Assembly: GCA_963716395.1 (NCBI GenBank)
Contig: OY970309.1
Location: 1,664,001-1,728,000, forward strand
Direction of reading: 5' to 3'
Source of the DNA: an uncultured Fibrobacteria bacterium
Lineage (GTDB): Bacteria; Fibrobacterota; Fibrobacteria; UBA11236
DNA: 64,000 nt
Part shown: piece by piece, positions 1 to 14,572 of the stretch
How the letters are laid out: every line of letters starts with the position of its first letter
How positions within the stretch are numbered: position 1 is the first letter of the stretch
Translations under genes and position numbers: made by a program
The notes under the pieces: model-generated
What the model saw: only the letters and a program-made list of their open reading frames with translations
Told to the model about the DNA's origin: nothing
The model's database searches: none

Positions 1-75
1 GGCAAGAATGTCCGGATTCGGAGCAAATGCTCCTGGCTTGAGAGCGACTGTATTACGGCTGTAAATGATGGACAT
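1..75 (-). CDS. Imm71/Imm72-type immunity protein paralogue, 5' end only (runs off the window edge)
   Basis: Minus-strand ATG at 75 reads MSIIYSRNTVALKPGAFAPNPDILA, aligning with MTINFENRESPLKQGAFAPNRQTLA of the 945-1841 protein. It lies directly downstream of the orphan toxin tip and is not in the ORF track. Confidence 0.75.
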   Translation of the reverse strand, partial: MSIIYSRNTVALKPGAFAPNPDILA

Positions 76-112
76 TTTACCCTCGGGGCATTATTTGTTT
101 TTTGACAGGCGT

Positions 113-718
113 TCAATGTTTTGTTTCCAATTCCAACGGTTCAAGATGTTCGGCCTCGGGATGCGACGGAGGAATATTGACTTGCATGTAATCTTGCCAA
201 TTGGTCGGAGTCTGCCTGCGTTTCAAGACTTCATCGAGAGCGTCTTTATTATTCGGATTGCGAAAGTCGATTAAAAGTTGGGTGCCGCCTCCTGGCAAAG
301 ATTGGCCAAAAGCCAAATTTTGATCTCCGTTTTCCAATTTTGCGTCTCTATCGATTTGGCTAGATGCTTTACCTTCCCAAGCCCAAAGCTCGGTTCCTTC
401 AGGAACCTCGAATTCGAGATAATATCCATTCTTGCTGAATTTATTCAGTACCGCCAAATCCTTTCGCCAATCTTCTCCACTTGCAGGTAGATGGTATGTC
501 CACCATAAACCGTCATTGGGTTTTCCTTCCTGAATAACACGATAGACTTTTGTTCTTTCGGGTAATTTGACCGGACGTATGGGCCCGCTGAACGCTGCAA
601 TGGCCCAATAATCTTTGGGTTCCTCTTCTACTTCACGTTTCCAGGACCGGCCTGCAATTCCTACGAAAAGTGTTGAATCCCGGGGCCAAAAATCAACCTG
701 AAGCGGCGCTTTCCACAA
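113..718 (-). pseudogene. Orphan toxin C-terminal cassette, paralogous to the tip of 1885-3627, with no FIX/N-terminal part
   Basis: AFSGPI..RVIQEGKP..GLWWTYHLP.SGEDWRKDLAVLNKFSKNGYY..WEGKASSQID..GGGTQLLIDFRN aligns along its length with the C-terminal ~190 aa of 1885-3627. Homology fades near 650 and the GTG start is doubtful. Confidence 0.75.
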
Positions 719-816
719 GGGGGCGCGGGATCCTCCGGGAGATCGCTCAGGATGGTTCCACCCTCCGTCAGAATGCCTCCAATTGGGAACGACGGAAACA
801 CGACGCCGACCAGGCC

Positions 817-909
817 ACCCCGGACGCGCACCGCAATGCCATCAAATCTGCGGTGGTGCTCGAAGTTGAGAACGGCAAGTACGTATACAAGGAAACTATC
901 GCGCCTTGA
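817..909 (+). pseudogene. 3' remnant of a LivJ/LivK-like ABC substrate-binding protein gene
   Basis: DAHRNAIKSAVVLEVENGKYVYKETIAP* resembles the typical C-terminus of branched-chain amino-acid binding proteins. The upstream part of the 670-909 ORF does not. Confidence 0.5.
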
Positions 910-944
910 AACCAACTGAGCGCGGGTGATATTAAGCCGAGGCC

Positions 945-1841
945 CTAAGGCCCCGGAGCCACCGGCGGATCTTTGGGGAATTGCGTGTAGTCGTCGAGCA
1001 AATATTCCTGCTCTTCCAAAGGAATTTTCCCATCACGATATCGTGTGTCTTCCCACACCAATTCCCAGGTGCAGGGGAATTCGGCGGAGTTGTAATGCGT
1101 AAAGGTGACCCGTGATGAGCCGGGATTATCGGTATCGGTCCTAATTTCTTCAAACTTAGATACGGCAATATTCGCAGGTGGTGCCTTGCGACCTCGAGTG
1201 AAATAATTCGGACAGCCGCCTTTGATTTTAAGCGGTTCCCAAATTCCAGAAATTGGAATATCGTCACCATTGCGAATGCAAATGCCCTTGCGTAATGGGT
1301 ATCCACCGATGATATCTGGAAATTTAAACTTGGAATTATCAAGTAATGGATACCAAAGTTTTCCGCTTAAGGCGGACTCGATAGGAATAGTCATTTGCAA
1401 CGCGTTTTCCATCCAACACCAAAGGCCAATGGAAGTTGGGGCGTTTGGTTGATCAAAGTCCCCCTTCTTACCAAGGGGAGAGTAATCCATGTCTCCACCA
1501 AATCGGCCGTAGTAGAATAAATCGCGAAATCCAATGCCATTCAAAATTTTGAAATATCCGGAATGGTTACCTTTTTTTAATTCCATTAATCCAGTTTCGA
1601 GTTGGCCTAACGCGCCATGGCCTTCAGAAAGCGCCGTTAAGTAGGCTCCTGGTTCTGTTTGTTTCGCGACAAAGTCTTTAAATCCTGGCATAAAGTTTTG
1701 AACAAGTTCGATCATTCGTCCGATGTAGGTCACCGAGGTATTTCGTTTGTATAACCAAAAGGTTTTGGCCAATGTTTGGCGATTAGGTGCAAAGGCTCCT
1801 TGCTTAAGAGGGGATTCTCTATTCTCGAAGTTAATGGTCAT
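945..1841 (-). CDS. Imm71-Imm72 fused polymorphic-toxin immunity protein
   Basis: Motifs FWLYKRNTS, GDDIPISGIWEP, GCPNYF and WEDTRY (WxDxRY)..DGKIPLEEQEY. AT-rich and directly downstream of the toxin gene. Confidence 0.8.
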   Translation of the reverse strand: MTINFENRESPLKQGAFAPNRQTLAKTFWLYKRNTSVTYIGRMIELVQNFMPGFKDFVAKQTEPGAYLTALSEGHGALGQLETGLMELKKGNHSGYFKILNGIGFRDLFYYGRFGGDMDYSPLGKKGDFDQPNAPTSIGLWCWMENALQMTIPIESALSGKLWYPLLDNSKFKFPDIIGGYPLRKGICIRNGDDIPISGIWEPLKIKGGCPNYFTRGRKAPPANIAVSKFEEIRTDTDNPGSSRVTFTHYNSAEFPCTWELVWEDTRYRDGKIPLEEQEYLLDDYTQFPKDPPVAPGP

Positions 1842-1884
1842 TAGGATGTGCTCGATTTTTTTAGAAACCTTTAATAGAGAAGGT

Positions 1885-3627
1885 TCAATTTGTTTTCGTT
1901 TCGACTTCCTCTGGTGTTAATCGATCGGTCTCGGTATGCTTTTTGGGTATCCCGATATCATTAAAATTAGTCCAATTAGTTTCGTCGAGCTTTGAATTCT
2001 CAATATCAGTTTTCGCAAATACGTTATCTTCGTTTTTAAAATCAATAAAAAATTGTTTGCCTCCTCCTTTTAGTCGTTGCCTGTAGGAAGGATTCCGTTC
2101 CCCGTTTCTCAAAAAAGGTTCGGTGTCGATTTGGCTGGAGGCTTTGCCTTCCCAAGCAACCAGCTTTTTGCCTTTCGGAACTGTGTATTTAACATAGTAT
2201 CCATTATTGCTGAATCTGTTTAACACTGCGAGATCTTCTCGCCAGTCATTTCCGGAATCCGGGAGACGATAAGTCCACCATACCCCGGTTTTGGGCTTGC
2301 CTGCTTGGATAACCCGAATAATAGTGGTTCCCTCTCCCAGTTCTATTCCTTCAATAGGTCCACTGAAAGCTTCGATCAACTCATAATGTTCAACACCATT
2401 AACCATCTCTACTTTTTTTCTCAAATCCGGCCACCCTTCCTTATGGTGGTAATCCGACAGGCTGTTCTGCGGAAACGGCATTTTCTCCGCCAGCTTGGCT
2501 TCATCCGCCACTTCGACCAGGCGCGCCTCGGCCTCGCGCGTTTCGCTGGTGACCGCGGAACCTTTGGGCACGGGAATCCAATCGCCCTGGTAAACCTTGT
2601 TTTGCACGGAATGGAGCTTGGAGTTGATATCCTTGACCGCCTTCGGAATCATCTCTTCGCCTTTTTTGGCCAAGGCATCAAAGCCGTTGCGCAAATCCGC
2701 CAGGCGGTTGCACATGCCTTCGGTCATGAGCCCGCCCAGGCGTTTCAAGGCCGCGGCCAACACGCCGTCGAGGCGGTTCATTAAATCGCCCCAATGGGAC
2801 TTCAAGGGGCCGATGTATTTCTCAAAATCGAGTTCCTTGATCCATTTGCGGGCGTCCCCGATGCCCACGCGATTCAAGAACGCGATCAGTTCACCGATTT
2901 TGACAGACTCTTTGGCCGCGTCTTCGCCCACCCGCACCACCAATTTGCCCACGCCCTTGAGCACGCCGCCCAAAATCGGAATCAAGGCCAAAAGCATGAT
3001 CACCAGAATCACCCATTCGGCGACTTCTTCGCGTTTCTTGGGATCGTCAACCAAGCGGATTACCACCGCCAGCAGATCGCGCACGGCCGTGACATCGCCC
3101 ACCAGGGGTATCATGCCGATGACGGCATCAACCATAATTTGGCTGACGGTTTGCTTTTCGTTGAAGCCGCCTTGCAAGGTTCCCCACACCCAATGAAAGG
3201 CGTCGAGGGCGAAGCTTTCCCGTGCCGGCGGCGGCAGGGCGCCATCGGGTCGCGGGCCGGCTTGAGCCTGCGTCACCGTGTCGTTGGCGTCGGCCTCGGT
3301 GAACGATTCCAGATATTCGGGATTGGGCGTTTGATCGGCGCGCGTATACGCTCGGCTGTCGGCGCCGAAGCGCACGCGTTTCGGAGGTGAGGGCAAATTG
3401 ACGACGCGCGCCTCCCCGTTCTCGTCCAGCTTTCCCTGGATGACTTGGCCGTTTTCCAATTCGAGTTCGAAGGGCGCGTCGACCACCGGCGAATCGTCAT
3501 GGTACCGTCGGCGCAGAGTCACGGTCTGCGTCGCGATGTCGACATCGTAGCGTTGACCCGTGGGCGCGTCGATGAACTCGGATTGGCCGCTGGCGTTCGG
3601 GGTCCACTCCAATACGGGATCGCTCAT
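1885..3627 (-). CDS. FIX-domain polymorphic toxin (T6SS-effector-like): transthyretin-like domain, FIX, helical linker, toxin tip
   Basis: RYHDDSPVVDAPFELELENGQVIQGKLDENGEARV is the TTR-like module seen on VgrG extensions. WVWGTLQGGFNEKQTVSQIMVDAVIGMIPLVGDVTAVRDL is FIX-like. The C-terminal tip has RVIQ/WWT/GGGKQ, and an immunity gene follows. Confidence 0.8.
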   Translation of the reverse strand: MSDPVLEWTPNASGQSEFIDAPTGQRYDVDIATQTVTLRRRYHDDSPVVDAPFELELENGQVIQGKLDENGEARVVNLPSPPKRVRFGADSRAYTRADQTPNPEYLESFTEADANDTVTQAQAGPRPDGALPPPARESFALDAFHWVWGTLQGGFNEKQTVSQIMVDAVIGMIPLVGDVTAVRDLLAVVIRLVDDPKKREEVAEWVILVIMLLALIPILGGVLKGVGKLVVRVGEDAAKESVKIGELIAFLNRVGIGDARKWIKELDFEKYIGPLKSHWGDLMNRLDGVLAAALKRLGGLMTEGMCNRLADLRNGFDALAKKGEEMIPKAVKDINSKLHSVQNKVYQGDWIPVPKGSAVTSETREAEARLVEVADEAKLAEKMPFPQNSLSDYHHKEGWPDLRKKVEMVNGVEHYELIEAFSGPIEGIELGEGTTIIRVIQAGKPKTGVWWTYRLPDSGNDWREDLAVLNRFSNNGYYVKYTVPKGKKLVAWEGKASSQIDTEPFLRNGERNPSYRQRLKGGGKQFFIDFKNEDNVFAKTDIENSKLDETNWTNFNDIGIPKKHTETDRLTPEEVETKTN

Positions 3628-3658
3628 ATATTCAAAACCCGAACAAGGATCGCTGAGA

Positions 3659-4179
3659 TTACTTGGTTTTTACGGTGGACGTTAAATTGCTTTTTAAATA
3701 CTTCAACAAACTAATATTCGAATCAGATTTAATATCGGCGATTTTCCACTTTTCATGCATCCAAGCAAGTGTAAAAATGATGTTTTCTTTATGGTCGCAA
3801 TTCGTAAATCGGGCACCGCTTTCGATGCGAGTATTTTCAATGCGGTTGATTGAAACCGCCACATGAAATGTGTCGCACCAATCTTGGCAATTACAAATGA
3901 GATCAGCATCAAGAAGGCCGACTTCTCCATTCGCCAAACTGTCATCAAGACGGATCAATTTCAATAACTCGGGCGTGAAAAGGGTATCGGCGGCCTTGCC
4001 AAATAATTCGGCCCCGAGTCGGATGACGTAGTTGGAACGACGTTCGAATTATATCCCTTGTACAGATTCAAAATGAATGACTTCGCTGCCGCCGAATCTT
4101 GGCCAAAAATATTAGCGATCCAGAATAATCCTACTAAAACGGAAATCAATAATGAATTTGTTTTTGCCCCGGATTTCAT
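3659..4179 (-). pseudogene. DUF3828/YbjP-like exported protein (candidate peptidoglycan-effector immunity), split by a 1-nt frameshift
   Basis: ORF 3961-4179 has a signal peptide plus AAAKSFILNLYKGY; ORF 3659-3964 has LDADLICNCQD...WKIADI. Adding one G near 4000 fuses them as GPNYLGKAADTLFTPELLKLIRLDD (~173 aa). Confidence 0.7.
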
Positions 4180-4646
4180 TTGGCCAGTTTTAGAATTTTG
4201 GTTAAAGCAAATTGTTTCGAGATATTTTGAATCTGATTGTGAACCTTTATAGACGCTGAATCAGGAGTGAAATCGTCGAATTCCCAATTACTATCCAGCC
4301 CGAGGGCTTTTGCACATATTATCCGTTTCTCTGGAGTATAAACTAGGCAAGTATTTGGTTTCCCTTGCAAGGGTTCCAATTCCATTGTGAACCAGGTAAA
4401 CCCCTGCGAATGATCGAAGACGTTGAACGTGGTGTCACTTCCTCGAATAAGCGTATCGATCGATGCATCCTGATAAATGAGATAAACTTCGGTTGCATGT
4501 TGCATGTTTTGTTGCACATCGACGACGATTTTTTGAGGTTTCGGTTTTGTAAATTCGATGCTATCTACGATAGGTTTCGCAGCCTCCGACCTACAGCAGG
4601 CAAAGCCAAAACAAATCATAAAAAGGAGGCGGAAATTTAAATTCAT
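4176..4646 (-). CDS. Exported protein, candidate cognate immunity for the upstream lytic transglycosylase effector
   Basis: Signal/lipoprotein-like N-terminus (LLFMICFGFACC), AT-rich, with an ATGA overlap on the effector stop codon. Confidence 0.55.
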   Translation of the reverse strand: MNLNFRLLFMICFGFACCRSEAAKPIVDSIEFTKPKPQKIVVDVQQNMQHATEVYLIYQDASIDTLIRGSDTTFNVFDHSQGFTWFTMELEPLQGKPNTCLVYTPEKRIICAKALGLDSNWEFDDFTPDSASIKVHNQIQNISKQFALTKILKLAK

Positions 4647-6229
4647 TGATTTTTTCTCGCTAATATATGAGCAACATATTCCGCTATTTCTCGAAACTTA
4701 TCCTTTTTACCCCAACTTTCCGGGATGGCTTTGAAGAGAGGCGAGGTTTCGTTGGGCGTCTTAATTAGATCATCCCAAAGCGCCGCTTTTTTATTTGAAA
4801 ACTTATAGGCTTGCTGTATCGTGCCTTGGCCGGCGTTGTAGGCTGCGAGGTAAAACTTGGATTTTTCGTCCTCGTTTAATTCTTGATCATAATTGGAAAA
4901 CACATTTTGGTCGATTGCATTTTTCTTGAGGGAAAACTCTCTGGCCCCAGCTTGGATGGATTTTCCCGAATCAAACCGCTCGTCTCCAGCAAAGTCAAAG
5001 AACCAGTTCGACCCTATTTTCCTGGTATTGCCAACATGCAACCCCACTTCATGGATAGCGTCGCCTCCGATTTGTGTAAGACCCGCAAAGCCATGGTTGT
5101 TATGAGCTTTCGGATCAAAACCGCTTTCTTGGGCTATTAAGGATTTAAGAATGATGGGATCGATTCCATTTGCTTCTGCGGCAGACTTGATTTCATTGTT
5201 GTACTTGTTTTGGTCCGAAATATTTCGACCAAATCCTTGGTTCCAATTTGTCCAGACCGGATCTTCATTTTTCGGATTTGCCTGTCCTTCACCACCATTA
5301 TCGCTATCCGCATCATCATCGTCATCACCCCCATCGCCGGGCAACACCTGCGGCGCCAGCGGCTTTCCGTCGGTGCCGGTGGGTGTGAAGCCGGTCAGAC
5401 GCACGCGTCCGGCCTTGGGCTTGTCGACGCGCAAGATGCCGCTATCGGGGACGTCCGCGGTTTTTTTGGTGCCGTCGGGCAAAATCAGGGTTGCTTGGCC
5501 GCGTTGGCCGAAATCGAATTCCACCCAACTGTCATAAGGAATGGGAGCGGATTCGGCGGCCGCGCCCAGGCATTCGGCGCGCACCCGGAAATTCGGGACG
5601 GCATAGTCCTCGGCATTTTTGGCCAGGGTCCCCTTGCTTGCAAAAGTGCTTTCGTCGCCGGGATAGGTTCCCTGCCATTGCGCCGAGGCCTTGCCGTTAT
5701 TGACCAGGGCTTCAAGGCAGGCCAGGCGCGTGCGCGCGTGGTGGCGGTTTTCCACCACGATTTCAAAACGGCATACGGCCCCGTTGGGCGCACCCTGAAC
5801 CTTGGCTTCTACCGTATAGGTTTGCGCGGCTTCGACGTCTTTCAGCGCCTTGCCTTGCGCGTCCAAAAGGCGCACGTCGGAAATTTTCACCGCCGGCCCC
5901 ACCTTGACCTTGGGCCCCACGGCCTGGATCGCATGCGCCTTCAGTTCGGCTTCGAAATACATGCCGCCGGTTTTGTTGGGCTTGGTCACGGGATAAAGCG
6001 CGCGGAATAAATCGGAAACCACGTGCCCCTTCAGAGTTTCTACGACCTGGCCCTCGAGATCTTTGATGGTAACGTCGATTTCGGAGCCGTCGGCCACCCA
6101 ATGCGTCCACACTTCCAACGGGATTTTCCCGCCTTGGGCCACGGCGTCGCGGCCCCAACCCGTGCGCACAATCGAAGACGGCAGCTTGAGCTGCAAGACC
6201 TGATCGGTTTGGCCTTGGGTTTTGGGCAT
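4643..6229 (-). CDS. Repeated N-module, Ig-like domain, TTR-like domain and SLT lytic transglycosylase (candidate secreted antibacterial effector)
   Basis: AAEANGIDPIILKSLIAQESGFDPKA..GFAGLTQIG..LAAYNAGQG are SLT motifs. It has an acidic linker GDGGDDDDDADSD and no signal peptide; the N-terminal 112 aa are shared with 10443-11339 and 13506-14378. Confidence 0.85.
   Translation of the reverse strand: MPKTQGQTDQVLQLKLPSSIVRTGWGRDAVAQGGKIPLEVWTHWVADGSEIDVTIKDLEGQVVETLKGHVVSDLFRALYPVTKPNKTGGMYFEAELKAHAIQAVGPKVKVGPAVKISDVRLLDAQGKALKDVEAAQTYTVEAKVQGAPNGAVCRFEIVVENRHHARTRLACLEALVNNGKASAQWQGTYPGDESTFASKGTLAKNAEDYAVPNFRVRAECLGAAAESAPIPYDSWVEFDFGQRGQATLILPDGTKKTADVPDSGILRVDKPKAGRVRLTGFTPTGTDGKPLAPQVLPGDGGDDDDDADSDNGGEGQANPKNEDPVWTNWNQGFGRNISDQNKYNNEIKSAAEANGIDPIILKSLIAQESGFDPKAHNNHGFAGLTQIGGDAIHEVGLHVGNTRKIGSNWFFDFAGDERFDSGKSIQAGAREFSLKKNAIDQNVFSNYDQELNEDEKSKFYLAAYNAGQGTIQQAYKFSNKKAALWDDLIKTPNETSPLFKAIPESWGKKDKFREIAEYVAHILARKNQ
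5894..6229 (-). repeat. N-module copy 1 (MPKTQGQTDQVL..VGPKVKVGP)
   Basis: Near-identical DNA to 11004-11339 and strongly similar to 14043-14378. Confidence 0.95.
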
Positions 6230-6237
6230 GGGCCAAA

Positions 6238-6361: not shown

Positions 6362-9259
6362 ATGGCGCCTTCCAAAGTTACTTCGGACGGAAAACGAAAA
6401 GTTGTCGGCCATGAACCCGGGGTCATCCTGTACCCGGCTTTGGGCAATCCGGAATTGGTTTCGGGTGATGATTCGCTTCATCTCATTCTCTGCCTGGCGG
6501 TCGAGCCCTCCAAGATGAAGGGAGAAGCCGGTCAAAAAATCCTAGCCGCCGGGTTGAAGTTCATGTCGCTGGAGTCCGCTGAAAATTTCAAATTGCAAAG
6601 GCTGGGCGCAAACGACTTCCACGGCGCCTTGAATCCGTCTCTCGTCAAATCAATCGAATCTCTCTCCGCATTTTTTTCCCAGGATCCCCCGGTTGTCGAT
6701 ATCGCGAAGAAAAGATGGCAGGCGATTTTTAAAACCTCCATCGTCCGCTATTTCTCTTCGGGAACCCTGCATGGCTACAGTGACGAGAGGTTGCAGAAGG
6801 CGGGGTTGCAAAACGCCTATCACGTCGAGATGGATGGCCCGGTCCTCCGAAATTGGCTGTCGGAAAACGCCGGGGAAGAGCTGGCACAACATTGTTTCGT
6901 CACCTGGATGAGTAAGCCGCCGGAGGAAGGGTTTCGCGAAATCGAAGAAGAGGCGGTGACCAATGGCCTGCGCGAGGTTCAGCTAGGCGGGAAAAACAAG
7001 TTCATCGGCGCCCGGGTGCGAAGCGCCTGCGATCACTTTGTGTTGGATAACGACGACACCTTGGTGGGGCCCGACGGCCCTCTGCGGGTGTTTGATATCT
7101 TCCAGTGGCAATTCAGCCTTTATCATCCTCTGGCCACCTTACACCCGGTCTTTTTTTATGATGACGACGTTTGCCTGAACGTGGGCTATATCAGCGATCT
7201 CCACGTCGTATCCCGTCTGGAAATTCTGCGACGTTCGGATTTTCAAATGGTGCCGGGCGTGCATCCCGACTATTCGCCGAAAGTATCCGACCTGATTTCC
7301 ACCACCGGCCGGGCCGTCAAAGAGCTTTTGGACAAGGCCGGAACGGCCGGCACAGCGGGCGATACGCAAGACGGTGAAGTGGACGTGCTCGTGGTGGGCG
7401 GTGACCTCATTGATTTTGCGCAAAGCAGCTTCCCCGGTGCGGATTCGCTGGCCGAGGTATTGCCCGCGCAAAAAGTCAGGGATTTGGTGAACGCCGACGA
7501 GAATTCCTTGGATCGGTTATACGACTACGGCGTTGATCTCATGGCCATTTACGAATTGATCGTCGATTTTTATCGCACCTACCAAAAGCCGGTGGTGATT
7601 CTATCCGGCAACCACGATGCCTACGATGCGCCTTTCGGTGTTTCGCCGCGGATTGTTTTAAAAAGTAAGATGGGGAATCCGGGAATTCCCGCCGATGCGA
7701 ATTTGACCGTGGCCGAAGCCTGTCTGCTCTACGGTGATAATTACGACAAGCATTTTTTCAGCATCGGGGATTTTAATGCGGATGTGATGGACTGCTTTTA
7801 CCTCGTTTTCACCCCGGTGCTTTCCTTCACGGCGAAGATGGGGAAAATGCAATGGATATCGCTGGGATGGGGCGACGATGAGAATATGTTCACCGAGGGT
7901 CCGTCCATCGGACATTTGCCCAACGCCAACGATTCGGTGTCGGCCAGCGAAAGCACCTTGATCGATCAGGCGGTGAAATATGCGCAGGACCATGGGGTGA
8001 CAGGTCTCATGGTTTCCCACTTTACCTGGGCCAGTTTCGACGATGCGTTGCGGCAAGACCCGAAGCGGGTCGGCTATTTCCCCTGGGGCAATCCTGCGGA
8101 TTTGCTGACACCCAACGACGTCACCAAATACAATCTCGGCACGTGCGAATTGAACCGGAAAAAGGTGTACGAGCATTTGTACAACGGTCGGATTCACGCT
8201 GCGATATCCGGCCATTCCCACCGCGCCGGCCTGTACCAGATCGACAGCTTGCATTACGTCGGCGACCGGGTTTCGGTGACGTCGCGCGGGATGGACGATT
8301 TTCAAGCAAAAAAAGATTCGGTCGACGCGCCTTACATCATTGTTTCCGACTCCTCCGGCCCCTTGCCGCGGGAAAACGTCGAACCCGTCGCGGTGCAGGA
8401 CGAAGACGGTTTTGCGGCCGGGGCCTTCAACGGATGGGGAAGCCATGCGCCGTCATTTACCAAACTCACCTTCGATTCCATGGGCGAACTGACCGATCTC
8501 CGCCGCGTGTGGACCACGCAGCCGAGAACCAAGCCGCGCCTGGCCGTGGCCATGGATTATTACGAGCTGGAAAATCAGCCTACGCTTGGAAACGACTTCT
8601 GGCTGAAAGACATCACCACGCTCAAACCCATCACCATGGACGGCGTCGATCAAATGAAACGGGATGCGAACGGCAAAATCCCTTTGCATCTCCATTGGTT
8701 CAAAGATCACATTCCCGCGTGGATCGGCGTGGCCTCGGCCACCTTGCATTTCCGGACCCATCCTCCCCGGGCGCCGGGTTTTTACACCTTCCGGATTTTC
8801 TATGCCGGCAATTCGTGGATTCTCGACGACCCGGACTTTACACTGCTGGATCTGCAAGATGATTTTTCCGTCACTGGATTTCTATCCATCATCTTGGGGA
8901 CCTACCATGACAAAACCGCCGGAAGTTCGGTGGACCGGTATAACATCTCCAGCCCATGGGTGGTGGCCGTAAACATCAAGGTTACGGCGGCGGCTCCCGG
9001 GTTTCTGGGTCTGACTACCAACGATTTCAAATTGAAAATTTCCCGAGTGTGGGATTTTGTCAAATACCCCGCGCAATCTGCTTATGTGAAACTCCTGCCG
9101 TCATCTGGCGGCGAGCCGGTTTCGACGCCGGAAGGGGGCGCCGATTCGCCCGGGCGAGGAGCAGGTGCGACACCTTCCAACGGGTCGCAGGGGGTCGGTG
9201 ACGACAGCGGTTCCCGCCCGGATCCCGGCTTCCAGATCAAAATTCCATTGCCGTTTTGA
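6362..9259 (+). CDS. Large calcineurin-like metallophosphoesterase protein (candidate effector)
   Basis: Metal-binding motifs SDLH, GGDLID, SGNHD and SGHSHR. No signal peptide; Gly/Ser/Pro-rich C-terminal tail. Confidence 0.8.
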   Translation: MAPSKVTSDGKRKVVGHEPGVILYPALGNPELVSGDDSLHLILCLAVEPSKMKGEAGQKILAAGLKFMSLESAENFKLQRLGANDFHGALNPSLVKSIESLSAFFSQDPPVVDIAKKRWQAIFKTSIVRYFSSGTLHGYSDERLQKAGLQNAYHVEMDGPVLRNWLSENAGEELAQHCFVTWMSKPPEEGFREIEEEAVTNGLREVQLGGKNKFIGARVRSACDHFVLDNDDTLVGPDGPLRVFDIFQWQFSLYHPLATLHPVFFYDDDVCLNVGYISDLHVVSRLEILRRSDFQMVPGVHPDYSPKVSDLISTTGRAVKELLDKAGTAGTAGDTQDGEVDVLVVGGDLIDFAQSSFPGADSLAEVLPAQKVRDLVNADENSLDRLYDYGVDLMAIYELIVDFYRTYQKPVVILSGNHDAYDAPFGVSPRIVLKSKMGNPGIPADANLTVAEACLLYGDNYDKHFFSIGDFNADVMDCFYLVFTPVLSFTAKMGKMQWISLGWGDDENMFTEGPSIGHLPNANDSVSASESTLIDQAVKYAQDHGVTGLMVSHFTWASFDDALRQDPKRVGYFPWGNPADLLTPNDVTKYNLGTCELNRKKVYEHLYNGRIHAAISGHSHRAGLYQIDSLHYVGDRVSVTSRGMDDFQAKKDSVDAPYIIVSDSSGPLPRENVEPVAVQDEDGFAAGAFNGWGSHAPSFTKLTFDSMGELTDLRRVWTTQPRTKPRLAVAMDYYELENQPTLGNDFWLKDITTLKPITMDGVDQMKRDANGKIPLHLHWFKDHIPAWIGVASATLHFRTHPPRAPGFYTFRIFYAGNSWILDDPDFTLLDLQDDFSVTGFLSIILGTYHDKTAGSSVDRYNISSPWVVAVNIKVTAAAPGFLGLTTNDFKLKISRVWDFVKYPAQSAYVKLLPSSGGEPVSTPEGGADSPGRGAGATPSNGSQGVGDDSGSRPDPGFQIKIPLPF

Positions 9260-9269
9260 ACCCGCGTCC

Positions 9270-10415
9270 ATGTACCGTCGACTTCTGGTTCTTTCTCTGT
9301 TTCCCTTGGGGTTTCACATGCACAATGATCACCACGCTGACCTGGACAGCCTGCTCAAAGACGTGCCCGCATTCAATCGGCGTTTTGCATCGACCGTACT
9401 GGAGGTGGGGGACGACCATTGGCCGGATTACGCCGTGACGGGAATGGAACTCCGTGGGGCGCGTTTCTCGGGGACCGAATTCTCGGGAAGCCGGATTTCC
9501 CAATCGAAATTCTCGGATTGCCGGTTCCAAGACGTGGCGTTTACTGCCGCCGAACTGCAAGACGTCGAATTCGACCGCTGCCGATTCGAGCACTGCGTTT
9601 TCACGGCTGCGAAGGTGTCGAATTGTCGGTTTCGGGGCGGGGATTTCAGCGAAACGGTTTTGCAATTCGAAAAAGACAGCCCCCATTGGACCATCGTGGA
9701 AAATTCGAAATTCGACAGCGTGCGCTTTGCCGGATTGCATCTGAACAAAGCGAATTTTAGCAACTCCTTTTTTCAAAAGGACACGTTCGAAGACATCGAC
9801 TACGAAGACGCGCTGTTTTCCAAATGTTCGTTCCAAGCGCCGCGCTTTGCCGGAAAAGATTTCTCCAATGTCCAGTTCACCGAATGCCTTTTGGAACATC
9901 CCGTTTACCAAGGCCCGAAACTGCAAAAGGCGGCGTATGCAAAAACGGTGATTATTGGAGTCCAATTGGCGCCGGAGTCGAACTGGAGCGAACGGAATTT
10001 CGGAGTGCTGGGTGTCGTGTTCAAAAATTCGACGTTTGATTTATCCAAGTTGCGCGGAAACTTCGGATTGAACGGCGGCGAAGATTGCACGATCGAGAAT
10101 TTCGATTCCGAAGGTTCGTTCGGGTTGAGCGGGGTTTACACCCGTGTTATGATCAAAAACATTCGTGCCAGGCGGCTTGATCTGGATCACGGCACGGTGT
10201 GCAAGCAGGTCCGCTTTGAAGAGGTCGAAGCCCGCGACGTGTACTTGGATAAGTCGCAATTCACGGATTGCATGTTCCGAAATTTTACGGCCGGGAAATT
10301 CATGCGCGCCGACAGCGCCACGTTTGAAAACGTGCGCTGGGAAAACGCCAAGTTGGGCGCGGGTGCGGTCTTTTCCGCCAAAGGCACCATTTACGAACAG
10401 CACCCTCCGTTTTAA
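9270..10415 (+). CDS. Pentapeptide-repeat protein, possibly exported
   Basis: Regular xFxxx repeats (ARFSG TEFSG SRISQ SKFSD CRFQD VAFTA). Probable start ATG at 9270 (MYRRLLVLSLFPLG), 10 nt after the previous stop. Confidence 0.85.
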   Translation: MYRRLLVLSLFPLGFHMHNDHHADLDSLLKDVPAFNRRFASTVLEVGDDHWPDYAVTGMELRGARFSGTEFSGSRISQSKFSDCRFQDVAFTAAELQDVEFDRCRFEHCVFTAAKVSNCRFRGGDFSETVLQFEKDSPHWTIVENSKFDSVRFAGLHLNKANFSNSFFQKDTFEDIDYEDALFSKCSFQAPRFAGKDFSNVQFTECLLEHPVYQGPKLQKAAYAKTVIIGVQLAPESNWSERNFGVLGVVFKNSTFDLSKLRGNFGLNGGEDCTIENFDSEGSFGLSGVYTRVMIKNIRARRLDLDHGTVCKQVRFEEVEARDVYLDKSQFTDCMFRNFTAGKFMRADSATFENVRWENAKLGAGAVFSAKGTIYEQHPPF

Positions 10416-10442
10416 GTCGGTGGCCGCTCCCGGCGGGTTGCC

Positions 10443-11339
10443 TCAACGAAGCAAATCGGCAATCGCGCTTTCGTCAACGTGGTACATGCCCGGCTTGGTT
10501 TTCGGCACTTCGATTTGCCCGTCGGCGGGGATGACGTATTCTTTTTTTTCGCCGTCGGGCGCGGTGACCGAAATTTTCTTGCCCGCGAATTTTCCCGCTG
10601 TTCCCGGAGAAAATTCATAGATGAGCAGCATTGCCTGCACGGCGGGTACTGCATTTGACTTCGCCGTCACGCCCCAAAGCTCCAAGGTGAACACGAATGC
10701 GGGGTGGTAGTACTTCCCGCCGTGTTTATCCAAATCGCTTTGGGTCAGGATTTCTTTCACGTCTTTGGGAAAGGGTTTGTTCCAGGTGAATTGAATTTTG
10801 CCTTTTTGCACTTCGGCCCGGGTGGAAAGCACGCGCAAGACGTTGTGTTCATCAGCTTGGAAAAGCACGAGAGCGCTCACCGTGGCGCCCGCAGGCGCGC
10901 CCTCGACCGAGGCTTGGCATAATACCGCTTCGCCGTCCTGTACTTCTTTCAATTCGGATTGTCCTTTTTCGTCCAGCCATTTCAAATTCTTGAATTGCAC
11001 CCCCGGCCCCACCTTGACCTTGGGCCCCACGGCTTTGACCGCATGCGCCTTGAGTTCGGCTTCGAAATACATGCCACCGGTTTTGTTGGGCTTGGTCACG
11101 GGATAAAGCGCGCGGAACAAATCGGAAACCACGTGCCCCTTCAGAGTTTCTACGACCTGGCCCTCGAGATCTTTGATGGTAACGTCGATTTCGGAGCCGT
11201 CGGCCACCCAATGCGTCCACACTTCCAACGGGATTTTCCCGCCTTGGGCCACGGCGTCGCGGCCCCAGCCCGTGCGCACAATCGAAGACGGCAGCTTGAG
11301 CTTCAAAACCTGATCGGTTTGGCCTTGGGATTTGGGCAT
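10443..11339 (-). CDS. N-module, Ig-like and TTR-like protein with no toxin domain (candidate adaptor/tether)
   Basis: Shared N-module. Ends right after ISVTAPDGEKKEYVIPADGQIEVPKTKPGMYHV, equivalent to the pre-linker domain of 4643-6229. Confidence 0.75.
   Translation of the reverse strand: MPKSQGQTDQVLKLKLPSSIVRTGWGRDAVAQGGKIPLEVWTHWVADGSEIDVTIKDLEGQVVETLKGHVVSDLFRALYPVTKPNKTGGMYFEAELKAHAVKAVGPKVKVGPGVQFKNLKWLDEKGQSELKEVQDGEAVLCQASVEGAPAGATVSALVLFQADEHNVLRVLSTRAEVQKGKIQFTWNKPFPKDVKEILTQSDLDKHGGKYYHPAFVFTLELWGVTAKSNAVPAVQAMLLIYEFSPGTAGKFAGKKISVTAPDGEKKEYVIPADGQIEVPKTKPGMYHVDESAIADLLR
11004..11339 (-). repeat. N-module copy 2
   Basis: Long stretches identical to 5894-6229. Confidence 0.95.
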
Positions 11340-11347
11340 GGTTGAAA

Positions 11348-11387
11348 GTTATAAACGACTGGGAATCGAGTTGTGATCTTGAACACC
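11348..11387 (-). promoter_or_regulatory. CRP/FNR-like box plus -10 element, copy 2
   Basis: Minus strand reads GGTGT-TCAAGA-TCACA, 18 nt, TATAAC, 8 nt, ATG. Confidence 0.65.
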
Positions 11388-11418
11388 AAGGCTTCATGAC
11401 CGGGGCTTGCAGGCTTGG

Positions 11419-11593
11419 GGGTACCTCTACTAATCGCATTCCGGCTGCGGCTCCGCCTGCGGCGGACGAAGGCCTCCGGCTTCGTTGTCCGCCGCAGGCG
11501 GAGCGATATTCAAGCCATATCGCCTTTCTCACGCGCCTTGCCGGCGGCCTTCTCGCTAGGCCTCGCTTACGAAAGCCGATTATTAGAGGTCCC
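11419..11593. mobile_element. MITE-like element (175 bp) with imperfect terminal inverted repeats and a 4-bp TTGG target duplication
   Basis: Left end GGGTACCTCTACTAATCG, right end CGATTATTAGAGGTCCC. TTGG occurs at 11415-11418 and 11594-11597. Long internal hairpin GCTCCGCCTGCGGCGGAC...GTCCGCCGCAGGCGGAGC; related copy at 32967. Confidence 0.7.
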
Positions 11594-11712
11594 TTGGACA
11601 AGCCAAAAGAAAAACTCACAGAGAGGGGGACCGATTCAAGCTGCAAGGTTTAATCCGATGGTTACCTGTCGTCATCAAGGAAAAGTTTGGAGATCGGAAA
11701 TTGCCGGGAGTA

Positions 11713-12939
11713 TCATTCCGTCGGCCAAGCGGGAGGTTCATCCAAATCATTGCGAGCGGGGAGAGGATCTGTTTGAGCTTCTACTTCCAAATCCGCAGGC
11801 ACCACATCCGCGCTGACCTGACTCCCTTCGGGCGAATGCAACAATGCGGTTGCATATTGAACGGCCTGTGGCCCGCTGCCGTTGTAATTTTGCCAAGCGG
11901 GGCGCGCCCAGTCTTTCCAGGTAATTCCAGCGGCGAAGTTATGCCTGAGCAGTCCTAAGAAAAGATTCATGCCCAGGTCGACATTCGCCGTCCAATCCCA
12001 AGCTATGGCCCCGGGGATCGTGCGCGCGCCGACTTTTGTGTATTGCGAAATACCCACGCCGAAATCGAAAGTCGCCAAGGGGAAATGCGGCGGATCATCC
12101 GGCCAATCGAAGACCACATGACAATCCGGTTGCGTCGGGTCGTTTTGATGATGGCGTTGGGTGAAATTCATGGCGGCACGTGTCTGCGCGTCGTTTTTGA
12201 ATTGAGTAAAAGCGGATTCGTGGGCGAAAACGGCGCGTACCATATGGCGGATATTTTCATTCCGATCGGACAGGGCGTCATCGACATGCCGGAGCACGGC
12301 GGCTGAACCGGGGTTCGCGCCTCCGATGCGCATGTGTACGAAATCAAGCAGCGGCGGGCTCACGCGCCCGGGGTTCGCGGACAGGGAGAGAATGGCGTGC
12401 CCCCCCAAAACCGGCGACCCGGGATCCATTGAGTTATAAGTGCATTGCAAATCTTCATTGGACACGTCATCGAATAGAACGAAGTCATTTTTGCCGCTCC
12501 AACCCTACCACTCCAAATTAAAGATTTCGCAGGCCCCGCCGTACCGATAATGCCCGTGGTTTGTGTGGCGGCACAGCACATGACGGCATTGCAATCGCCA
12601 TTGGATGGGAAACTCCGTGGGATCGAATCCCGACACTTCGCATTCCACATGCAACTTTGGCATGCGCGGGTCTTCGGTAAGGCTGAACACGTTCCGATTG
12701 AATGTGGAACGCCGTGGAACGTCATTTTCATGATAGCCCGGCGGGTCGGCGGCGTCCAAATTCGTGATGCGAAGCCCGAACACCCCATCGGCGGCAATTT
12801 GATGCGTCGCGCCCGTTGCGAATCGGGTGTTTCGGGCGGCCGGCGAAAGGCTTCCCTGGTTTCTAAACGGCAACGCCAAACCGTCATTGCTGCCGCTGAA
12901 ATTGTTATCGAGAAGATGCCAATCCGGAGTGTGCGCCAT
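11713..12939 (-). pseudogene. Lysozyme/SLT-like protein (~408 aa) interrupted by one in-frame TAG at 12505-12507
   Basis: ORFs 12505-12939 and 11713-12465 share a frame and read ...NLEW*GWSGKNDFVLFDDVSNEDL.... C-terminal motifs AVFAHES, GVGISQ, WDWTANVDLG and YNGSGPQAVQYA are SLT-like. Confidence 0.7.
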
Positions 12940-12940
12940 G

Positions 12941-13492
12941 TCAGTTCCGGGGACAATGGAACGAGTAGGTGGCGTTGCCTTCGCAGGGGTTGGCTTCGGA
13001 ACGGCATTTCCATTCGCAATCGATCTCCAAGGTGTCTACTGCGCCGGAAGCCGTGAAAGCAAGGCCCGTGACCTGGCAGATGGAATTGCCGGGCAGTTCT
13101 TGGGCGGGCTGCCAACCTTCTTTTCCTTTCGTCAAGCCCGCGCGCTTTGCGCCTTGATGCATCCAGTCCGCGGATGGATCTCCGGAGCATTTCAACGAGT
13201 CGAGTTGCCAATCAATGCTTGGGAATTTTTTACCGGAAGGCGGCGTTTGCCGGATTCGGGCGCGGCCACGGCATTGATAAGACGCGTCGTCGAGGAAAGC
13301 CTTTACCGAATAAATGCAAAGCCGCGAAATCGAGTCCGCCGGCGGCGCCGCTTCTTTGGCGGTGGATGAATGGATGGAGTCGGCAGCGCCATTTTTTATG
13401 GGCCATGGTTTTTCCGCGGACGAGATGCCCAGGCAGGCGATATACGCCAAAATGAGCGCACGGCAAATCCGTGAAAAAAGGATGGATGCCAT
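12941..13492 (-). CDS. Exported Cys-rich hypothetical protein (candidate immunity)
   Basis: Signal peptide (ALILAYIACLGISSA); stop lies 1 nt before the start of the lysozyme-like gene. Confidence 0.55.
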   Translation of the reverse strand: MASILFSRICRALILAYIACLGISSAEKPWPIKNGAADSIHSSTAKEAAPPADSISRLCIYSVKAFLDDASYQCRGRARIRQTPPSGKKFPSIDWQLDSLKCSGDPSADWMHQGAKRAGLTKGKEGWQPAQELPGNSICQVTGLAFTASGAVDTLEIDCEWKCRSEANPCEGNATYSFHCPRN

Positions 13493-13505
13493 ATCACGAA
13501 AGATA

Positions 13506-14378
13506 TCAGTTATCGGAAAAACCTTTAAATAGAACGGGTCCCGGAACGGCAGTCTTCACATTGAGGTACCCGTCTTCCGGAACGGAAATTTCTTTTTTGG
13601 TTCCGTCGGGGAATTCAAATATTGCTTTGCGCGCCATTTTACGCTTTTGCGCCGGACCAAAATTAAAAGCAATCCAGGAATTCAACTTCAACTCCTGAGA
13701 CATTTTCTTGACGCCCAAGTGAAAGGCTTCGAACGAATAAACCGGTTGAAAATAATCCAGCCCGTATTTTGAGACATCATGGTCCGTGGGGATATCCTCG
13801 AATTTACCTGGGAAAGAAACCTTCCAATCCACGCGGACCTGCCCCGATTCGATCTCGACAGAAAAGGATTTGAATGAAGCCGGGCGGTGTTCTTGCGTGC
13901 GGCAAAAAAGTGAAAGGGCGGCGCGATCGCCTTCCTGAGCGCCTTTGATTTGGGCCGTTAATTCAACCTTGGCCCCTGCGGCAATTTCGGAAACCTCTTT
14001 CCCCTTCTCGTCGACCCATTTCAAATCGCTCCATTGCACCGCCGGCCATACCTTGACCTTGGGTCCCACGGCCTTGATCGAATGCTCATGGAGTTCGGCT
14101 TCGAAATACATGCCGCCGGTTTTGTTGGGCTTGGTCACCGGATACAACACGCGGAACAAATCGGAAACCATGTGCCCCTTCACGGTTTCCACGATCTGGC
14201 CTTCGAGATCTTTAATGGCGATGTCAATCTCAGATCTATCGGCCACCCAATGCGTCCACACTTCCAACGGGATTTTCCCGCCTTGGGCCACGGCGTCGCG
14301 GCCCCAGCCCGTGCGCACAATCGAAGACGGCAGCTTGAGCTTCAAAACCTGATCGGTTTGGCCTTGGGTTTTGGGCAT
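13506..14378 (-). CDS. N-module, Ig-like and TTR-like protein with no toxin domain (candidate adaptor/tether)
   Basis: Shared N-module; ends at AIFEFPDGTKKEISVPEDGYLNVKTAVPGPVLFKGF. Confidence 0.75.
   Translation of the reverse strand: MPKTQGQTDQVLKLKLPSSIVRTGWGRDAVAQGGKIPLEVWTHWVADRSEIDIAIKDLEGQIVETVKGHMVSDLFRVLYPVTKPNKTGGMYFEAELHEHSIKAVGPKVKVWPAVQWSDLKWVDEKGKEVSEIAAGAKVELTAQIKGAQEGDRAALSLFCRTQEHRPASFKSFSVEIESGQVRVDWKVSFPGKFEDIPTDHDVSKYGLDYFQPVYSFEAFHLGVKKMSQELKLNSWIAFNFGPAQKRKMARKAIFEFPDGTKKEISVPEDGYLNVKTAVPGPVLFKGFSDN
14043..14378 (-). repeat. N-module copy 3
   Basis: Same sequence as copies 1 and 2 with more substitutions. Confidence 0.95.
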
Positions 14379-14386
14379 GGGCTAAA

Positions 14387-14427
14387 GTTATAAACCGGGC
14401 TCGGACCGGGTTGTGATCGCCGACACC
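14387..14427 (-). promoter_or_regulatory. CRP/FNR-like box plus -10 element, copy 3
   Basis: Minus strand reads GGTGT-CGGCGA-TCACA, 19 nt, TATAAC, 8 nt, ATG. Confidence 0.65.
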
Positions 14428-14572
14428 AGTCCCCTGGCCCGTGGGCTTAATGCATCGTAGGAACCATCCCATTTTCAAATCTGCGAATGGAACAATACGG
14501 GCTGAAAAAATGCGAACGAAGAGGTTACCTCGGATGGCACGCCGCTGAGAGCGGAAGCCTCCGAGGCGGACT

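Follow-up and report, generated by a model that had tools for sequence, protein, structure and literature searches.

A PAAR-related trunk in a putative polymorphic class of Fibrobacterota T6SS effectors and adaptors

What role might be played by a protein module that opens three genes of one bacterial island in nearly identical form and then gives way to divergent sequence? The genes lie within a 64,000-nucleotide stretch of DNA (the window), and an earlier note had interpreted the module of ~112 amino acids, unassigned to a family, as an N-terminal marker for traffic through a contractile secretion machine, with toxin and immunity genes gathered around it. Our analyses favour, with a probability of roughly 0.7, the interpretation that these genes belong to a new polymorphic class of T6SS effectors and adaptors, comparable with the MIX, FIX, RIX, PIX and WHIX classes. 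The contractile machine concerned would be the T6SS, and the marker is better described as a trunk of ~290 amino acids, part of which is common to PAAR proteins.

A shared module within a three-domain trunk

All three genes are open reading frames on the (-) strand, located at 4643..6229 (P0001, 528 amino acids), 10443..11339 (P0002, 298 amino acids) and 13506..14378 (P0003, 290 amino acids). In P0001, a trunk comprising domains D1, D2 and D3 (residues 1 to ~290; profile match 1-288, E 2.3e-98) is followed by an acidic linker and a C-terminal SLT lytic transglycosylase toxin (residues 347-481, E 3e-12). The other two paralogues consist of the trunk only, in agreement with the earlier assignment of a toxin to the first gene alone. 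P0003 is recognized by the trunk profile at E 1.6e-108, and P0002, which was assigned by alignment, gave no match in a family search up to E 10. The N-termini of all three proteins are hydrophilic, and no signal peptide was evident on reading by eye.

The D1 module (residues 1-112), delimited by alignment and DNA repeats and, for P0001, by a structural model, is encoded on the (-) strand at 5894..6229 in P0001, 11004-11339 in P0002 and 14043-14378 in P0003. In this region P0002 is 96% identical to P0001, and P0003 is 88% identical to either. The resemblance is also present in the DNA, where one family of three direct repeats of 300 nt each (5885-6184, 10995-11294 and 14034-14333) exhibits 97% and 89% identity, and where identity among the genes runs from ~40 nt 5' of the ATG to near codon 113. 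Exactly these three copies of D1 exist in the genome (3.75 Mb, one contig), and none exceeds 68% identity to any other protein. Beyond the module, residues 113-290 retain pairwise identities of only 27-31%, below the 37-45% that the D2-D3 regions reach with proteins of other organisms. Judging from these alignments, the near-identity over 112 amino acids reflects homogenization of D1 within the genome rather than the extent of the family unit, a mosaic evolution in which D1 has been homogenized among three otherwise old paralogues. Homogenization of D1 but not of D2-D3 would fit a single shared docking partner.

The conserved family unit is instead the whole trunk, which is formed from three beta-sandwich domains. 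An AlphaFold2 model of the P0002 trunk (pLDDT 91.1) is all-beta and has three domains, and D1 modelled alone (pLDDT 90.4) is an Ig/macroglobulin-like sandwich preceded by a conserved but disordered N-terminal peptide of 17 residues. D2 is Ig-like and D3 is transthyretin-like, and homologues match Big_1, CarboxypepD_reg and SpaA (prealbumin-like) over D2/D3, which bears out the Ig-like and TTR-like domains first read by eye. Searches of the trunk against Pfam (E up to 10) and NCBIfam (E up to 0.1) returned no family, and its one match among PDB sequences was a weak one to a Bacteroides fragilis PAAR chain (8gra_J, E 0.0056), so the module is indeed unassigned to a known sequence family. A VIA-align structural search with D1 is headed by 9jdh_A (Z 12.5, rmsd 8.7 A over 112 residues), the N-terminal domain of a T6SS effector, and by 9jg8_C (Z 12.2). 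However, these matches (rmsd 8.2-8.7 A) do not stand above generic Ig-like proteins such as PECAM-1 (Z 12.0, rmsd 2.0 A) and alpha-2-macroglobulin (Z 11.6, rmsd 2.4 A). The modelled D1 fold is thus best regarded as a generic Ig/macroglobulin sandwich, which counts against our preferred reading. An ancient duplication of D2 may also have given rise to D1 (hhalign probability 52%, E 1.4e-4).

The trunk profile matches both PAAR-M23 proteins of the source genome through profile positions 114-292 (E 2.1e-21), and hhalign aligned the trunk with a PAAR-family alignment over 224 columns (probability 99.7%, E 9.6e-26). These comparisons indicate homology between D2-D3 and the domains located after the PAAR cone in Fibrobacterota PAAR spike proteins. 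D1 thus occupies the place of PAAR, and the family is a relative of PAAR proteins carrying D1 instead. The architecture parallels specialized or 'evolved' PAAR proteins (PAAR, extension and toxin), whose extension in Fibrobacterota is the homologous region; both families include a short canonical form as well as toxin-extended forms, and in the source genome members of either family agree at the N-terminus and diverge in their toxin ends. Unlike those proteins, the trunk lacks a PAAR domain, with no match to PF05488 at E up to 10. Since D1 is a single sandwich without a three-fold cone, it presumably could not cap VgrG in the manner of PAAR.

Neighbouring genes in the island

The beginning of the window holds a classical polymorphic toxin array with orphan cassettes, of the kind treated by Zhang et al. 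2012 (PMC3482391). A toxin candidate of 580 amino acids (1885..3627, (-)) carries an N-terminal region, a hydrophobic stretch at ~165-235 and a C-terminal toxin module of ~165 amino acids that belongs to no known family; the protein as a whole gave no family match below E 0.01. Its C-terminus is duplicated in the orphan toxin tip noticed earlier (113..718, (-), 201 amino acids; 52% identity to residues 415-578, BLASTP E 9e-58). Between them lies an Imm72-family immunity protein (945..1841, (-), 298 amino acids; PF15584, E 4.6e-18), which substantiates the immunity-like neighbour of the earlier note. An Imm72 paralogue located just outside the window (L055:5179-6075) is 64% identical overall and identical over the last ~45 residues. 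The toxin of this array is a neighbour whose N-terminus differs, and the array lies outside the D1 family. The label 'FIX toxin', also given in the earlier note, is not supported, with no match in the family libraries, which contain no FIX model.

Two further candidates for immunity lie downstream of the SLT gene. An ORF of 156 amino acids (4176..4646, (-)) directly follows that gene with a 4-nt overlap; it matched nothing in family searches, and its position and hydrophobic N-terminus with a Cys, read by eye, suggest a periplasmic immunity protein. A DUF3828 gene (3659..4179, (-)) is split into ORFs of 72 and 101 amino acids, in different frames with a 4-nt overlap. The shorter is signal-peptide-like and the longer matches DUF3828 (E 3.2e-7) across profile positions 43-123 only; the gene is immunity-like.

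On the (+) strand, the metallophosphoesterase noted earlier proved to be a calcineurin-like protein of 965 amino acids (6362..9259; PF00149, E 1.8e-5) and is a candidate large cargo effector. Its homologues adjoin trunk genes in genomes from two other families of the phylum (L046, E 6e-67; L054, E 1e-41). A pentapeptide-repeat protein of 416 amino acids (9165..10415, (+); Pentapeptide_4, E 5.7e-24) might provide immunity to the metallophosphoesterase or act as its partner; in L054, three pentapeptide genes separate the metallophosphoesterase and trunk genes.

The reading of 11713-12465 as a second lysozyme-like gene is not supported, with no Pfam or PDB match found. This segment is the C-terminal part of a gene of ~400 amino acids (11713..12939, (-)) that is broken by an in-frame TAG (12505-12507), leaving ORFs of 144 and 250 amino acids that match residues 1-149 and 165-411, respectively, of a 422-amino-acid homologue (P0191). 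Homologues are mostly 370-437 amino acids long and belong to no Pfam family. Between this gene and P0003, and directly after the latter, is a Cys-rich ORF of 183 amino acids with a hydrophobic N-terminus (12941..13492, (-)) that had no match in family searches. P0003 is followed by this ORF and then by the interrupted gene, and P0002 and the pentapeptide gene converge. Neither of the two trunk-only genes in the window directly precedes a large intact effector gene, which counts against our preferred reading.

Spread of the family and its association with T6SS genes

A search of 1.84 billion proteins yielded 125 cluster representatives at E<=1e-3. This unnamed family has so far been found almost only in Fibrobacterota, with one match outside the phylum labelled Zixibacteria. 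D1 is the best-conserved part across genomes and lies at the N-terminus of 138 of the 139 stored proteins that match it. Among 124 proteins with a full D1, 57 are 250-330 amino acids long and 40 exceed 330. Domains related to the cell wall (CHAP, SLT, M23, pesticin, GH46, OmpA, PG_binding_1 and Beta-lactamase2) were found in 12 of 42 long forms scanned, and one more (P0103) is a trunk-Amidohydro_2 fusion. Four others gave Ig/TTR matches alone, three gave spurious repeat matches and 22 gave no match at their C-termini in the domain scan, which we count against our preferred reading. In L012, a trunk-OmpA-lysozyme fusion precedes a gene for an LprI lysozyme inhibitor. The earlier idea of a toxin system therefore stands with respect to polymorphic C-termini, but most members carry no toxin and resemble adaptors.

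Of 296 Fibrobacterota genomes, 53 contain D1 and 115 contain TssC, with 51 containing both; of the two D1 genomes lacking TssC, one is 79% complete and the other is in 780 contigs. Counted by genus, TssC is present in 18 of the 20 that have D1. These tallies are confounded by descent, with a single family without T6SS-linked D1 contributing 151 of the 296 genomes. D1 is absent from 64 of the 115 TssC-positive genomes and so is not a core T6SS part. The source genome encodes TssK, TssM, TssA, TssB, TssC, Hcp and TssG, one VgrG-DUF2169 locus and the two PAAR-M23 genes, and its T6SS is proteobacterial-like in type (VipA/VipB, IcmF and VasE families). The island lies at least 480 kb from any of its T6SS genes, a distance that also counts against our preferred reading.

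Closer linkage was observed in a hand-picked, non-random sample of 18 loci from 18 genomes. In this sample nine loci have a PAAR gene within 10 kb. VgrG is a neighbour at six loci and DUF2169 at four, and DcrB/DUF1795 lies just upstream of the trunk at five; neither VgrG nor PAAR was found within the examined stretch at eight. Arrays of the form VgrG-DUF2169-PAAR-...-trunk, all on one strand, are present in L011, L040, L047 and L049, and the order of PAAR protein, small accessory gene and trunk recurs. In eight cases an ORF of 527-1624 amino acids directly follows a trunk-only gene (five Amidohydro_2 and one Metallophos). Members without a toxin that lie just upstream of such large effector candidates look like adaptors.

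A possible loading module, its counterparts and its alternatives

These observations are consistent with a trunk that would serve as a cytoplasmic carrier and T6SS loading module of ~290 amino acids. D1 would dock the protein on a component of the spike complex of the same cell, which might be VgrG, a PAAR protein or an accessory protein. Cargo would be either fused at the C-terminus or encoded by the next gene. Fused cargo would mostly be cell-wall enzymes active in the periplasm, for example the SLT domain of P0001, and next-gene cargo would be a large protein of the Amidohydro_2 or metallophosphoesterase type, as with the 965-amino-acid gene beside P0001 and P0002.

The proteobacterial MIX, FIX, RIX, PIX and WHIX classes likewise join an N-terminal domain to interchangeable C-terminal toxins and are confined to T6SS-bearing genomes. 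According to sections of PMC6688995, more than 96% of FIX genomes carry a T6SS and 70% of directly upstream genes are T6SS components; RIX also occurs in secreted adaptors, to judge by the title of PMC10435454, and these resemble the trunk-only forms. The present family differs in its lineage and in its architecture, D1 being one folded Ig-like sandwich of a three-domain trunk homologous to PAAR-protein extensions. A second parallel is the paired delivery of Bacteroides fragilis GA3, in which the PAAR-effector BtpeA, the adaptor BtapC and the effector BtaeB assemble on VgrG (PDB 9JG8 and 9JDH). In this arrangement, one spike is loaded with both a PAAR-fused effector and a second effector whose N-terminal region is a beta-sandwich (PMC13699834 and PMC13402684). 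The gene order seen here is similar, and the GA3 structures are those at the top of the D1 search. However, no sequence match was found, the T6SS here is of the proteobacterial-like type, and the accessory genes encode DUF2169 or DcrB proteins rather than BtapC.

The trunk might be delivered by the T6SS without D1 being the docking element. Loading would then proceed through D2-D3 or an adaptor. The role of D1 would lie in the target cell, where it might bind envelope components and so hold cell-wall toxins in the periplasm, or D1 would be only a recombination handle for cassette exchange. We consider this rather unlikely. D2-D3 are the parts common to genuine spike proteins, D1 has a fold often used for binding and may derive from D2, and gene conversion alone would also produce DNA near-identity beginning 5' of the ATG. 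Yet the conservation of D1 across genomes, its N-terminal position and its selective homogenization are expected of a part that fits one self partner, and a role in the target cell is hard to reconcile with the many toxin-less forms.

Trunk-only proteins could alternatively be chaperones or adaptors retained in the cytoplasm of the producer, like Tap/DUF4123 or Eag/DUF1795, with fused forms being secondary. Their position before large effector candidates and the adjoining DcrB/DUF1795 genes agree with this proposal, which we nevertheless judge improbable. About one-third of full-D1 proteins carry C-terminal extensions, among them cell-wall enzymes that act in the periplasm, lack signal peptides and would need to be exported together with the trunk. 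In PAAR proteins, the regions homologous to D2-D3 belong to the secreted T6SS spike. It is very improbable that the family has no connection to the T6SS and consists of lineage-specific cell-wall remodelling or phage-derived lysin-like proteins, with co-occurrence arising from shared descent. The generic fold, the remoteness of the source island, the loci without spike genes and the non-independence of related genomes would suit such an origin. Against it stand the PAAR homology, the same-strand arrays, the distribution of TssC among genomes and genera, the N-termini and the finding of no phage genes around trunk genes in the window or the examined loci.

If our preferred reading of a T6SS effector and adaptor class is correct, it would extend the known kinds of effector-loading domain to the little-studied phylum Fibrobacterota, where toxins that degrade the cell wall, and other large effectors, would be loaded onto the T6SS by this carrier.

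The trunk family and its distribution

Sequence comparisons indicate that the trunk is a real, well-delimited feature that most likely represents a new class of polymorphic T6SS effectors and adaptors in Fibrobacterota. The earlier note took the N-terminal ~112-aa module (D1) as the conserved element. D1 is indeed N-terminal and shared, but the conserved unit of the family is the entire protein of ~290 aa (domains D1, D2 and D3), and relatives of 268-303 aa align over their full length. With D1 alone as the query, 125 proteins among 1.84 billion representatives matched at E ≤ 1e-3. A D1 HMM matches 139 of the collected proteins, and in all except one, a repeat protein, D1 lies inside the first 40 residues (138/139). 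Proteins with a full D1 number 124, including 8 redundant cluster members; 57 are 250-330 aa long, 40 exceed 330 aa, and 27 are shorter, most of them from short contigs.

The trunk has no match in Pfam (E up to 10), NCBIfam (E up to 0.1) or PDB sequences. A phmmer search of PDB sequences with P0002, one of the three paralogues in the window, gave chance-level matches alone (E ≥ 0.7), and Foldseek searches with the trunk and with D1 returned nothing beyond tandem macroglobulin/Ig domains. Relatives are annotated as 'hypothetical protein' and originate from Fibrobacterota/Fibrobacteres MAGs, with one labelled Zixibacteria, and the range outside Fibrobacterota rests on few source names. The AlphaFold2 model of the trunk is all-beta with three domains (pLDDT 91.1), and D1 modelled alone forms an Ig/macroglobulin-like sandwich (pLDDT 90.4). 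The Ig-like and TTR-like domains previously noticed behind the module are borne out, with D2 Ig-like and D3 transthyretin-like in the model, and with homologues matching Big_1, CarboxypepD_reg and SpaA at D3. D1 may have arisen from D2 by an ancient duplication (hhalign probability 52%, E 1.4e-4). The first ~17 residues are conserved, and among 23 sequences T8, S18 and W25 never vary and G6 hardly does. Residues 1-10 have a pLDDT of only 46-58 despite this conservation, and the N-terminus thus has the appearance of a putative binding peptide.

A link between D1 and a contractile secretion machine had also been proposed, and the genomes of the phylum agree with it. D1 (E ≤ 1e-5) occurs in 53 of 296 genomes and TssC in 115, and both are present in 51 of the 53, compared with TssC in 64 of the 243 D1-negative genomes. 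These genomes are kin, one D1-less family contributing 151 of them, and we claim an association with no statistic attached. The unpublished genome G254 is part of these totals; when it is left out, 50 of 52 D1-positive genomes have TssC. The two D1 carriers lacking a TssC match are G068, which is 79% complete, and G058, which is 96% complete in 780 contigs. Of the 20 D1-bearing genera, 18 have TssC.

The C-terminal ends of the family are varied. Among 42 long forms scanned, 12 carry cell-wall-related domains (CHAP, SLT, M23, pesticin, GH46 below its cut-off, Beta-lactamase2, OmpA in three and PG_binding_1 in three), one carries Amidohydro_2, and four match Ig/TTR domains only; 22 have no match of any kind and three are spurious repeat proteins. 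Phage_lysozyme is also among the domains fused to the trunk C-terminus.

Gene neighbourhoods and homology to PAAR proteins

We examined 18 loci from 18 genomes, picked by hand for family spread and long contigs, by scanning their ORFs against Pfam. A pattern scan with one genome per species, which is much less sensitive than the trunk profile scan, found only two loci. In the hand-picked set, PAAR genes occur in nine loci, with a tenth (L039) inferred from a D2-D3 profile match, VgrG in six and DUF2169 in four. Same-strand arrays in the order VgrG-(DUF2169)-PAAR-...-trunk are present in L011, L040, L047 and L049, and neither VgrG nor PAAR was found in the stretches examined for eight of the 18 loci or in the window itself. 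In five of the 18 loci, drawn from genomes that span three families, a gene for an Eag-chaperone-like DcrB/DUF1795 protein lies directly 5ʹ of the trunk gene (L045:8441-8872, L046:10620-11078, L047:9114-9602, L048:10238-10714 and L049:9604-10044). This protein is a candidate dedicated chaperone for the trunk, and its gene is absent from the window's own genome.

Trunk genes are extended in five of the 18 loci. The extension comprises OmpA plus lysozyme in L012, where a gene for the lysozyme inhibitor LprI follows directly, PG_binding_1 in L040 and L041, Beta-lactamase2 in L053, and a region without an assigned domain in L047. In eight further cases a trunk-only gene is followed directly by an ORF of 527-1624 aa, of which five encode Amidohydro_2, one Metallophos, one LysM, and one a protein without an identified domain. 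The trunk-Amidohydro_2 pairing also exists as a single fused protein (P0103). Homologues of the window's 965-aa metallophosphoesterase are encoded in L046 (E 6e-67), where the gene overlaps the end of the trunk gene, and in L054 (E 1e-41). In L054, three pentapeptide-repeat genes separate metallophosphoesterase from trunk, and the window has these three kinds of gene as well. At L011:9923-12831, in a MAG, a 345-aa trunk ORF is overlapped by a 759-aa ORF in a different frame; either a frameshift within a fusion gene or faulty assembly could explain this.

The genome that contains the window encodes a T6SS core cluster (TssK, TssM, TssA, TssB, TssC, Hcp and TssG), one VgrG-DUF2169 locus and two PAAR-M23 toxins, all distant from the island. 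Positions 114-292 of the trunk profile match both of these PAAR-M23 proteins (E 2.1e-21), the profile also matches many PAAR proteins of 360-380 aa in other genomes, and hhalign aligns trunk positions 48-295 with positions 147-375 of the PAAR family (probability 99.7%, E 9.6e-26). Therefore, the PAAR proteins of this phylum are built as PAAR, TTR-like, D2 and D3 with or without a toxin, whereas the trunk is built as D1, D2 and D3 with or without a toxin. The two share the Ig-like and TTR-like extension and differ in the PAAR cone: neither P0002 nor P0003 matches PF05488 even at E 10, whereas the genome's true PAAR proteins match it at E 7.7e-20. This homology offers a concrete evolutionary path from spike protein to cargo adaptor. 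The extension itself might already appear among the domain lists that supplement a PAAR survey (PMC8651086).

DUF2169 genes lie between VgrG and a PF05488-type PAAR gene at L015:10834-11931, L011:3522-5141, L012:1094-2194, L040:13702-14802 and L042:11878-13002, and the adjacent PAAR proteins contain both PAAR motifs and 'PIPH'. DUF2169 is reported to co-occur strictly with DUF4150/'PIPY' spikes (PMC11883445), and the 'PIPH'-bearing proteins may be an intermediate form.

Three paralogues within a low-GC island

The complete 3.75-Mb genome holds exactly three copies of D1, all on the minus strand of the window: P0001 (4643-6229, 528 aa), P0002 (10443-11339, 298 aa) and P0003 (13506-14378, 290 aa). 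As the earlier note had described, they share a near-identical N-terminal module (96% and 88% identity over residues 1-112, compared with 27-31% over residues 113-290), and P0001 alone carries a recognisable toxin domain (SLT, E 3e-12). The DNA contains a corresponding 300-nt repeat at 97% and 89% identity, and DNA similarity reaches from ~40 nt 5ʹ of the ATG to near codon 113. Upstream blocks (GATCACAAC ... GTTTATAAC-TTT) are kept before all three ATGs (6230-6275, 11340-11385 and 14379-14424, minus strand), and these could be a common promoter/leader or just part of a converted tract.

The remainder of each paralogue resembles proteins from other organisms at least as closely as it resembles its siblings. 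D2-D3 of P0003 is 45% identical to P0007, that of P0002 is 37% identical to P0006, and that of P0001 is 37% identical to P0004, P0005 and P0010, whereas D1 is at most 68% identical to any protein beyond the trio. The paralogues therefore represent old lineages whose D1 has been homogenised in this genome. Such homogenisation would fit a module that needs to match one cellular partner, and it would also fit gene conversion alone. It points to a putative docking interface that is open to test. The genome's PAAR-M23 toxins (L016:8773-10491 and L017:8984-10813, at ~0.055 and 1.181 Mb) repeat the pattern of an identical N-terminal part and divergent toxin ends: their first ~370 residues are identical and the difference is confined to the M23 end, giving 73% identity overall and a second case of cassette-like exchange.

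The first 16 kb of the window are low in GC (0.47-0.55, compared with ~0.61 elsewhere), a property that extends ~5 kb upstream of the window, and the rest of the window encodes housekeeping functions, among them PNPase, IF-2 and DprA. Scans for an island border revealed no tRNA gene within window positions 1-20000 or the 20 kb upstream. Among 11 congeners, the left-flank gene is present in ten and the right-flank gene in one, on a different contig; D1 occurs in none and TssC in one. The congeners have genomes of 1.9-2.7 Mb, compared with 3.75 Mb here, and this strain may have gained a large set of genes of its own, the T6SS and its effectors among them. Neither promoter-like sites (17, compared with 11.4 ± 3.4 in shuffles) nor terminator-like sites (23, compared with 25.5 ± 4.6) occur in useful excess.

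Behind P0001 lie, in order, a 156-aa ORF, DUF3828, a 580-aa protein, Imm72 and an orphan toxin copy. The 156-aa ORF, a candidate immunity gene by its position directly behind the SLT toxin gene, has no family match and an N-terminus that reads by eye as lipoprotein-like. The DUF3828 gene (3659-4179, minus strand), which has no PDB match, seemingly falls into two ORFs in different frames with a 4-nt overlap, one of 72 aa and signal-peptide-like, the other of 101 aa. The 580-aa protein (1885-3627) has a hydrophobic middle and a C-terminal toxin module without a family name, to which the orphan copy behind Imm72 is 52% identical. Its previous designation as a FIX toxin finds no supporting Pfam/NCBIfam match, and the FIX motif is published as a figure only. 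A second Imm72, just outside the window, is 64% identical overall, with the last ~45 residues identical.

Behind P0003 come a Cys-rich ORF of 183 aa and then a gene of ~400 aa whose family has no name. An in-frame TAG at 12505-12507 (minus strand) interrupts the latter gene, whereas its relatives run uninterrupted over 370-437 aa; a pseudogene, an error in sequencing and read-through are candidate explanations. The lysozyme-like label of its C-terminal part, the 250-aa ORF at 11713-12465, is unsupported: neither this ORF nor its full-length homologues match Pfam or PDB. The pentapeptide-repeat protein at 9165-10415 partly matches the model of HalA, an anti-phage effector of the Hailong system, at E 7.7e-18 and with 64.8 bits where the cut-off is 250, probably through shared repeats only. 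At the island edge, a 438-aa 3-keto-disaccharide-hydrolase-like protein (14573-15889) weakly matches TIGR04183, the C-terminal sorting domain of the T9SS, at E 1e-4 and narrowly below the cut-off.

Relation to known T6SS loading systems

The trunk resembles the MIX/FIX/RIX/PIX/WHIX class in its N-terminal position, its varied C-terminal toxin domains, the near-universal presence of a T6SS in carrier genomes, and, in the hand-picked loci, linkage to spike and adaptor genes. FIX is reported to be likewise N-terminal and to precede varied toxins, with T6SS genes upstream and a T6SS in >96% of carrier genomes (PMC6688995), and what was found for the trunk parallels the properties by which FIX was defined there. 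RIX, PIX and WHIX belong to the same class. D1 has no match to these markers in Pfam/NCBIfam, libraries not established as containing those models. The proposal that the module is an N-terminal T6SS marker agrees with its position (138/139), its varied toxin ends and its co-occurrence with TssC (51/53). The principle of an N-terminal loading domain is known; what is new is the three-domain form derived from PAAR proteins, for which secretion and a docking partner are putative.

A functional precedent is the Bacteroides fragilis BtpeA-BtapC-BtaeB complex, in which VgrG is reported to be loaded with a PAAR-fused effector together with a second one (PMC13699834, PMC13402684). The BtaeB N-terminal domain (9JDH) tops the VIA-align list for D1 (Z 12.5, rmsd 8.7 Å, 112 residues), tied with generic Ig domains (PECAM-1, Z 12.0, rmsd 2.0 Å; A2M MG, Z 11.6, rmsd 2.4 Å), and the whole trunk aligns to BtaeB with Z 11.6 and rmsd 15.6 Å. 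This likeness between a model and BtaeB is a lead only.

A bolder proposal, which we consider unlikely, holds that the trunk joins Hcp, VgrG and PAAR as a fourth kind of carrier secreted by the T6SS, a PAAR-protein derivative in which an Ig-like docking domain and a short conserved N-terminal peptide replaced the tip-capping cone. A single VgrG/PAAR spike could then bear several trunks along its side, each with its own fused or adjoining effector. If true, this arrangement would explain how a genome with one VgrG fires at least five different spike-borne effectors.

Full-text literature searches found no study of T6SS effectors in Fibrobacterota. To our knowledge, no signal is common to all T6SS effectors, and the discovery of each N-terminal marker has given access to a catalogue of unknown toxins. 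As a class of effectors and adaptors, the trunk would open such a catalogue for Fibrobacterota. It flags as candidate effectors several groups without a known toxin role, namely the large Amidohydro_2 proteins, the ~400-aa unnamed family and the metallophosphoesterase paired with pentapeptide-repeat proteins, and it marks the 22 of 42 long-form C-termini without a family as candidate effector families.
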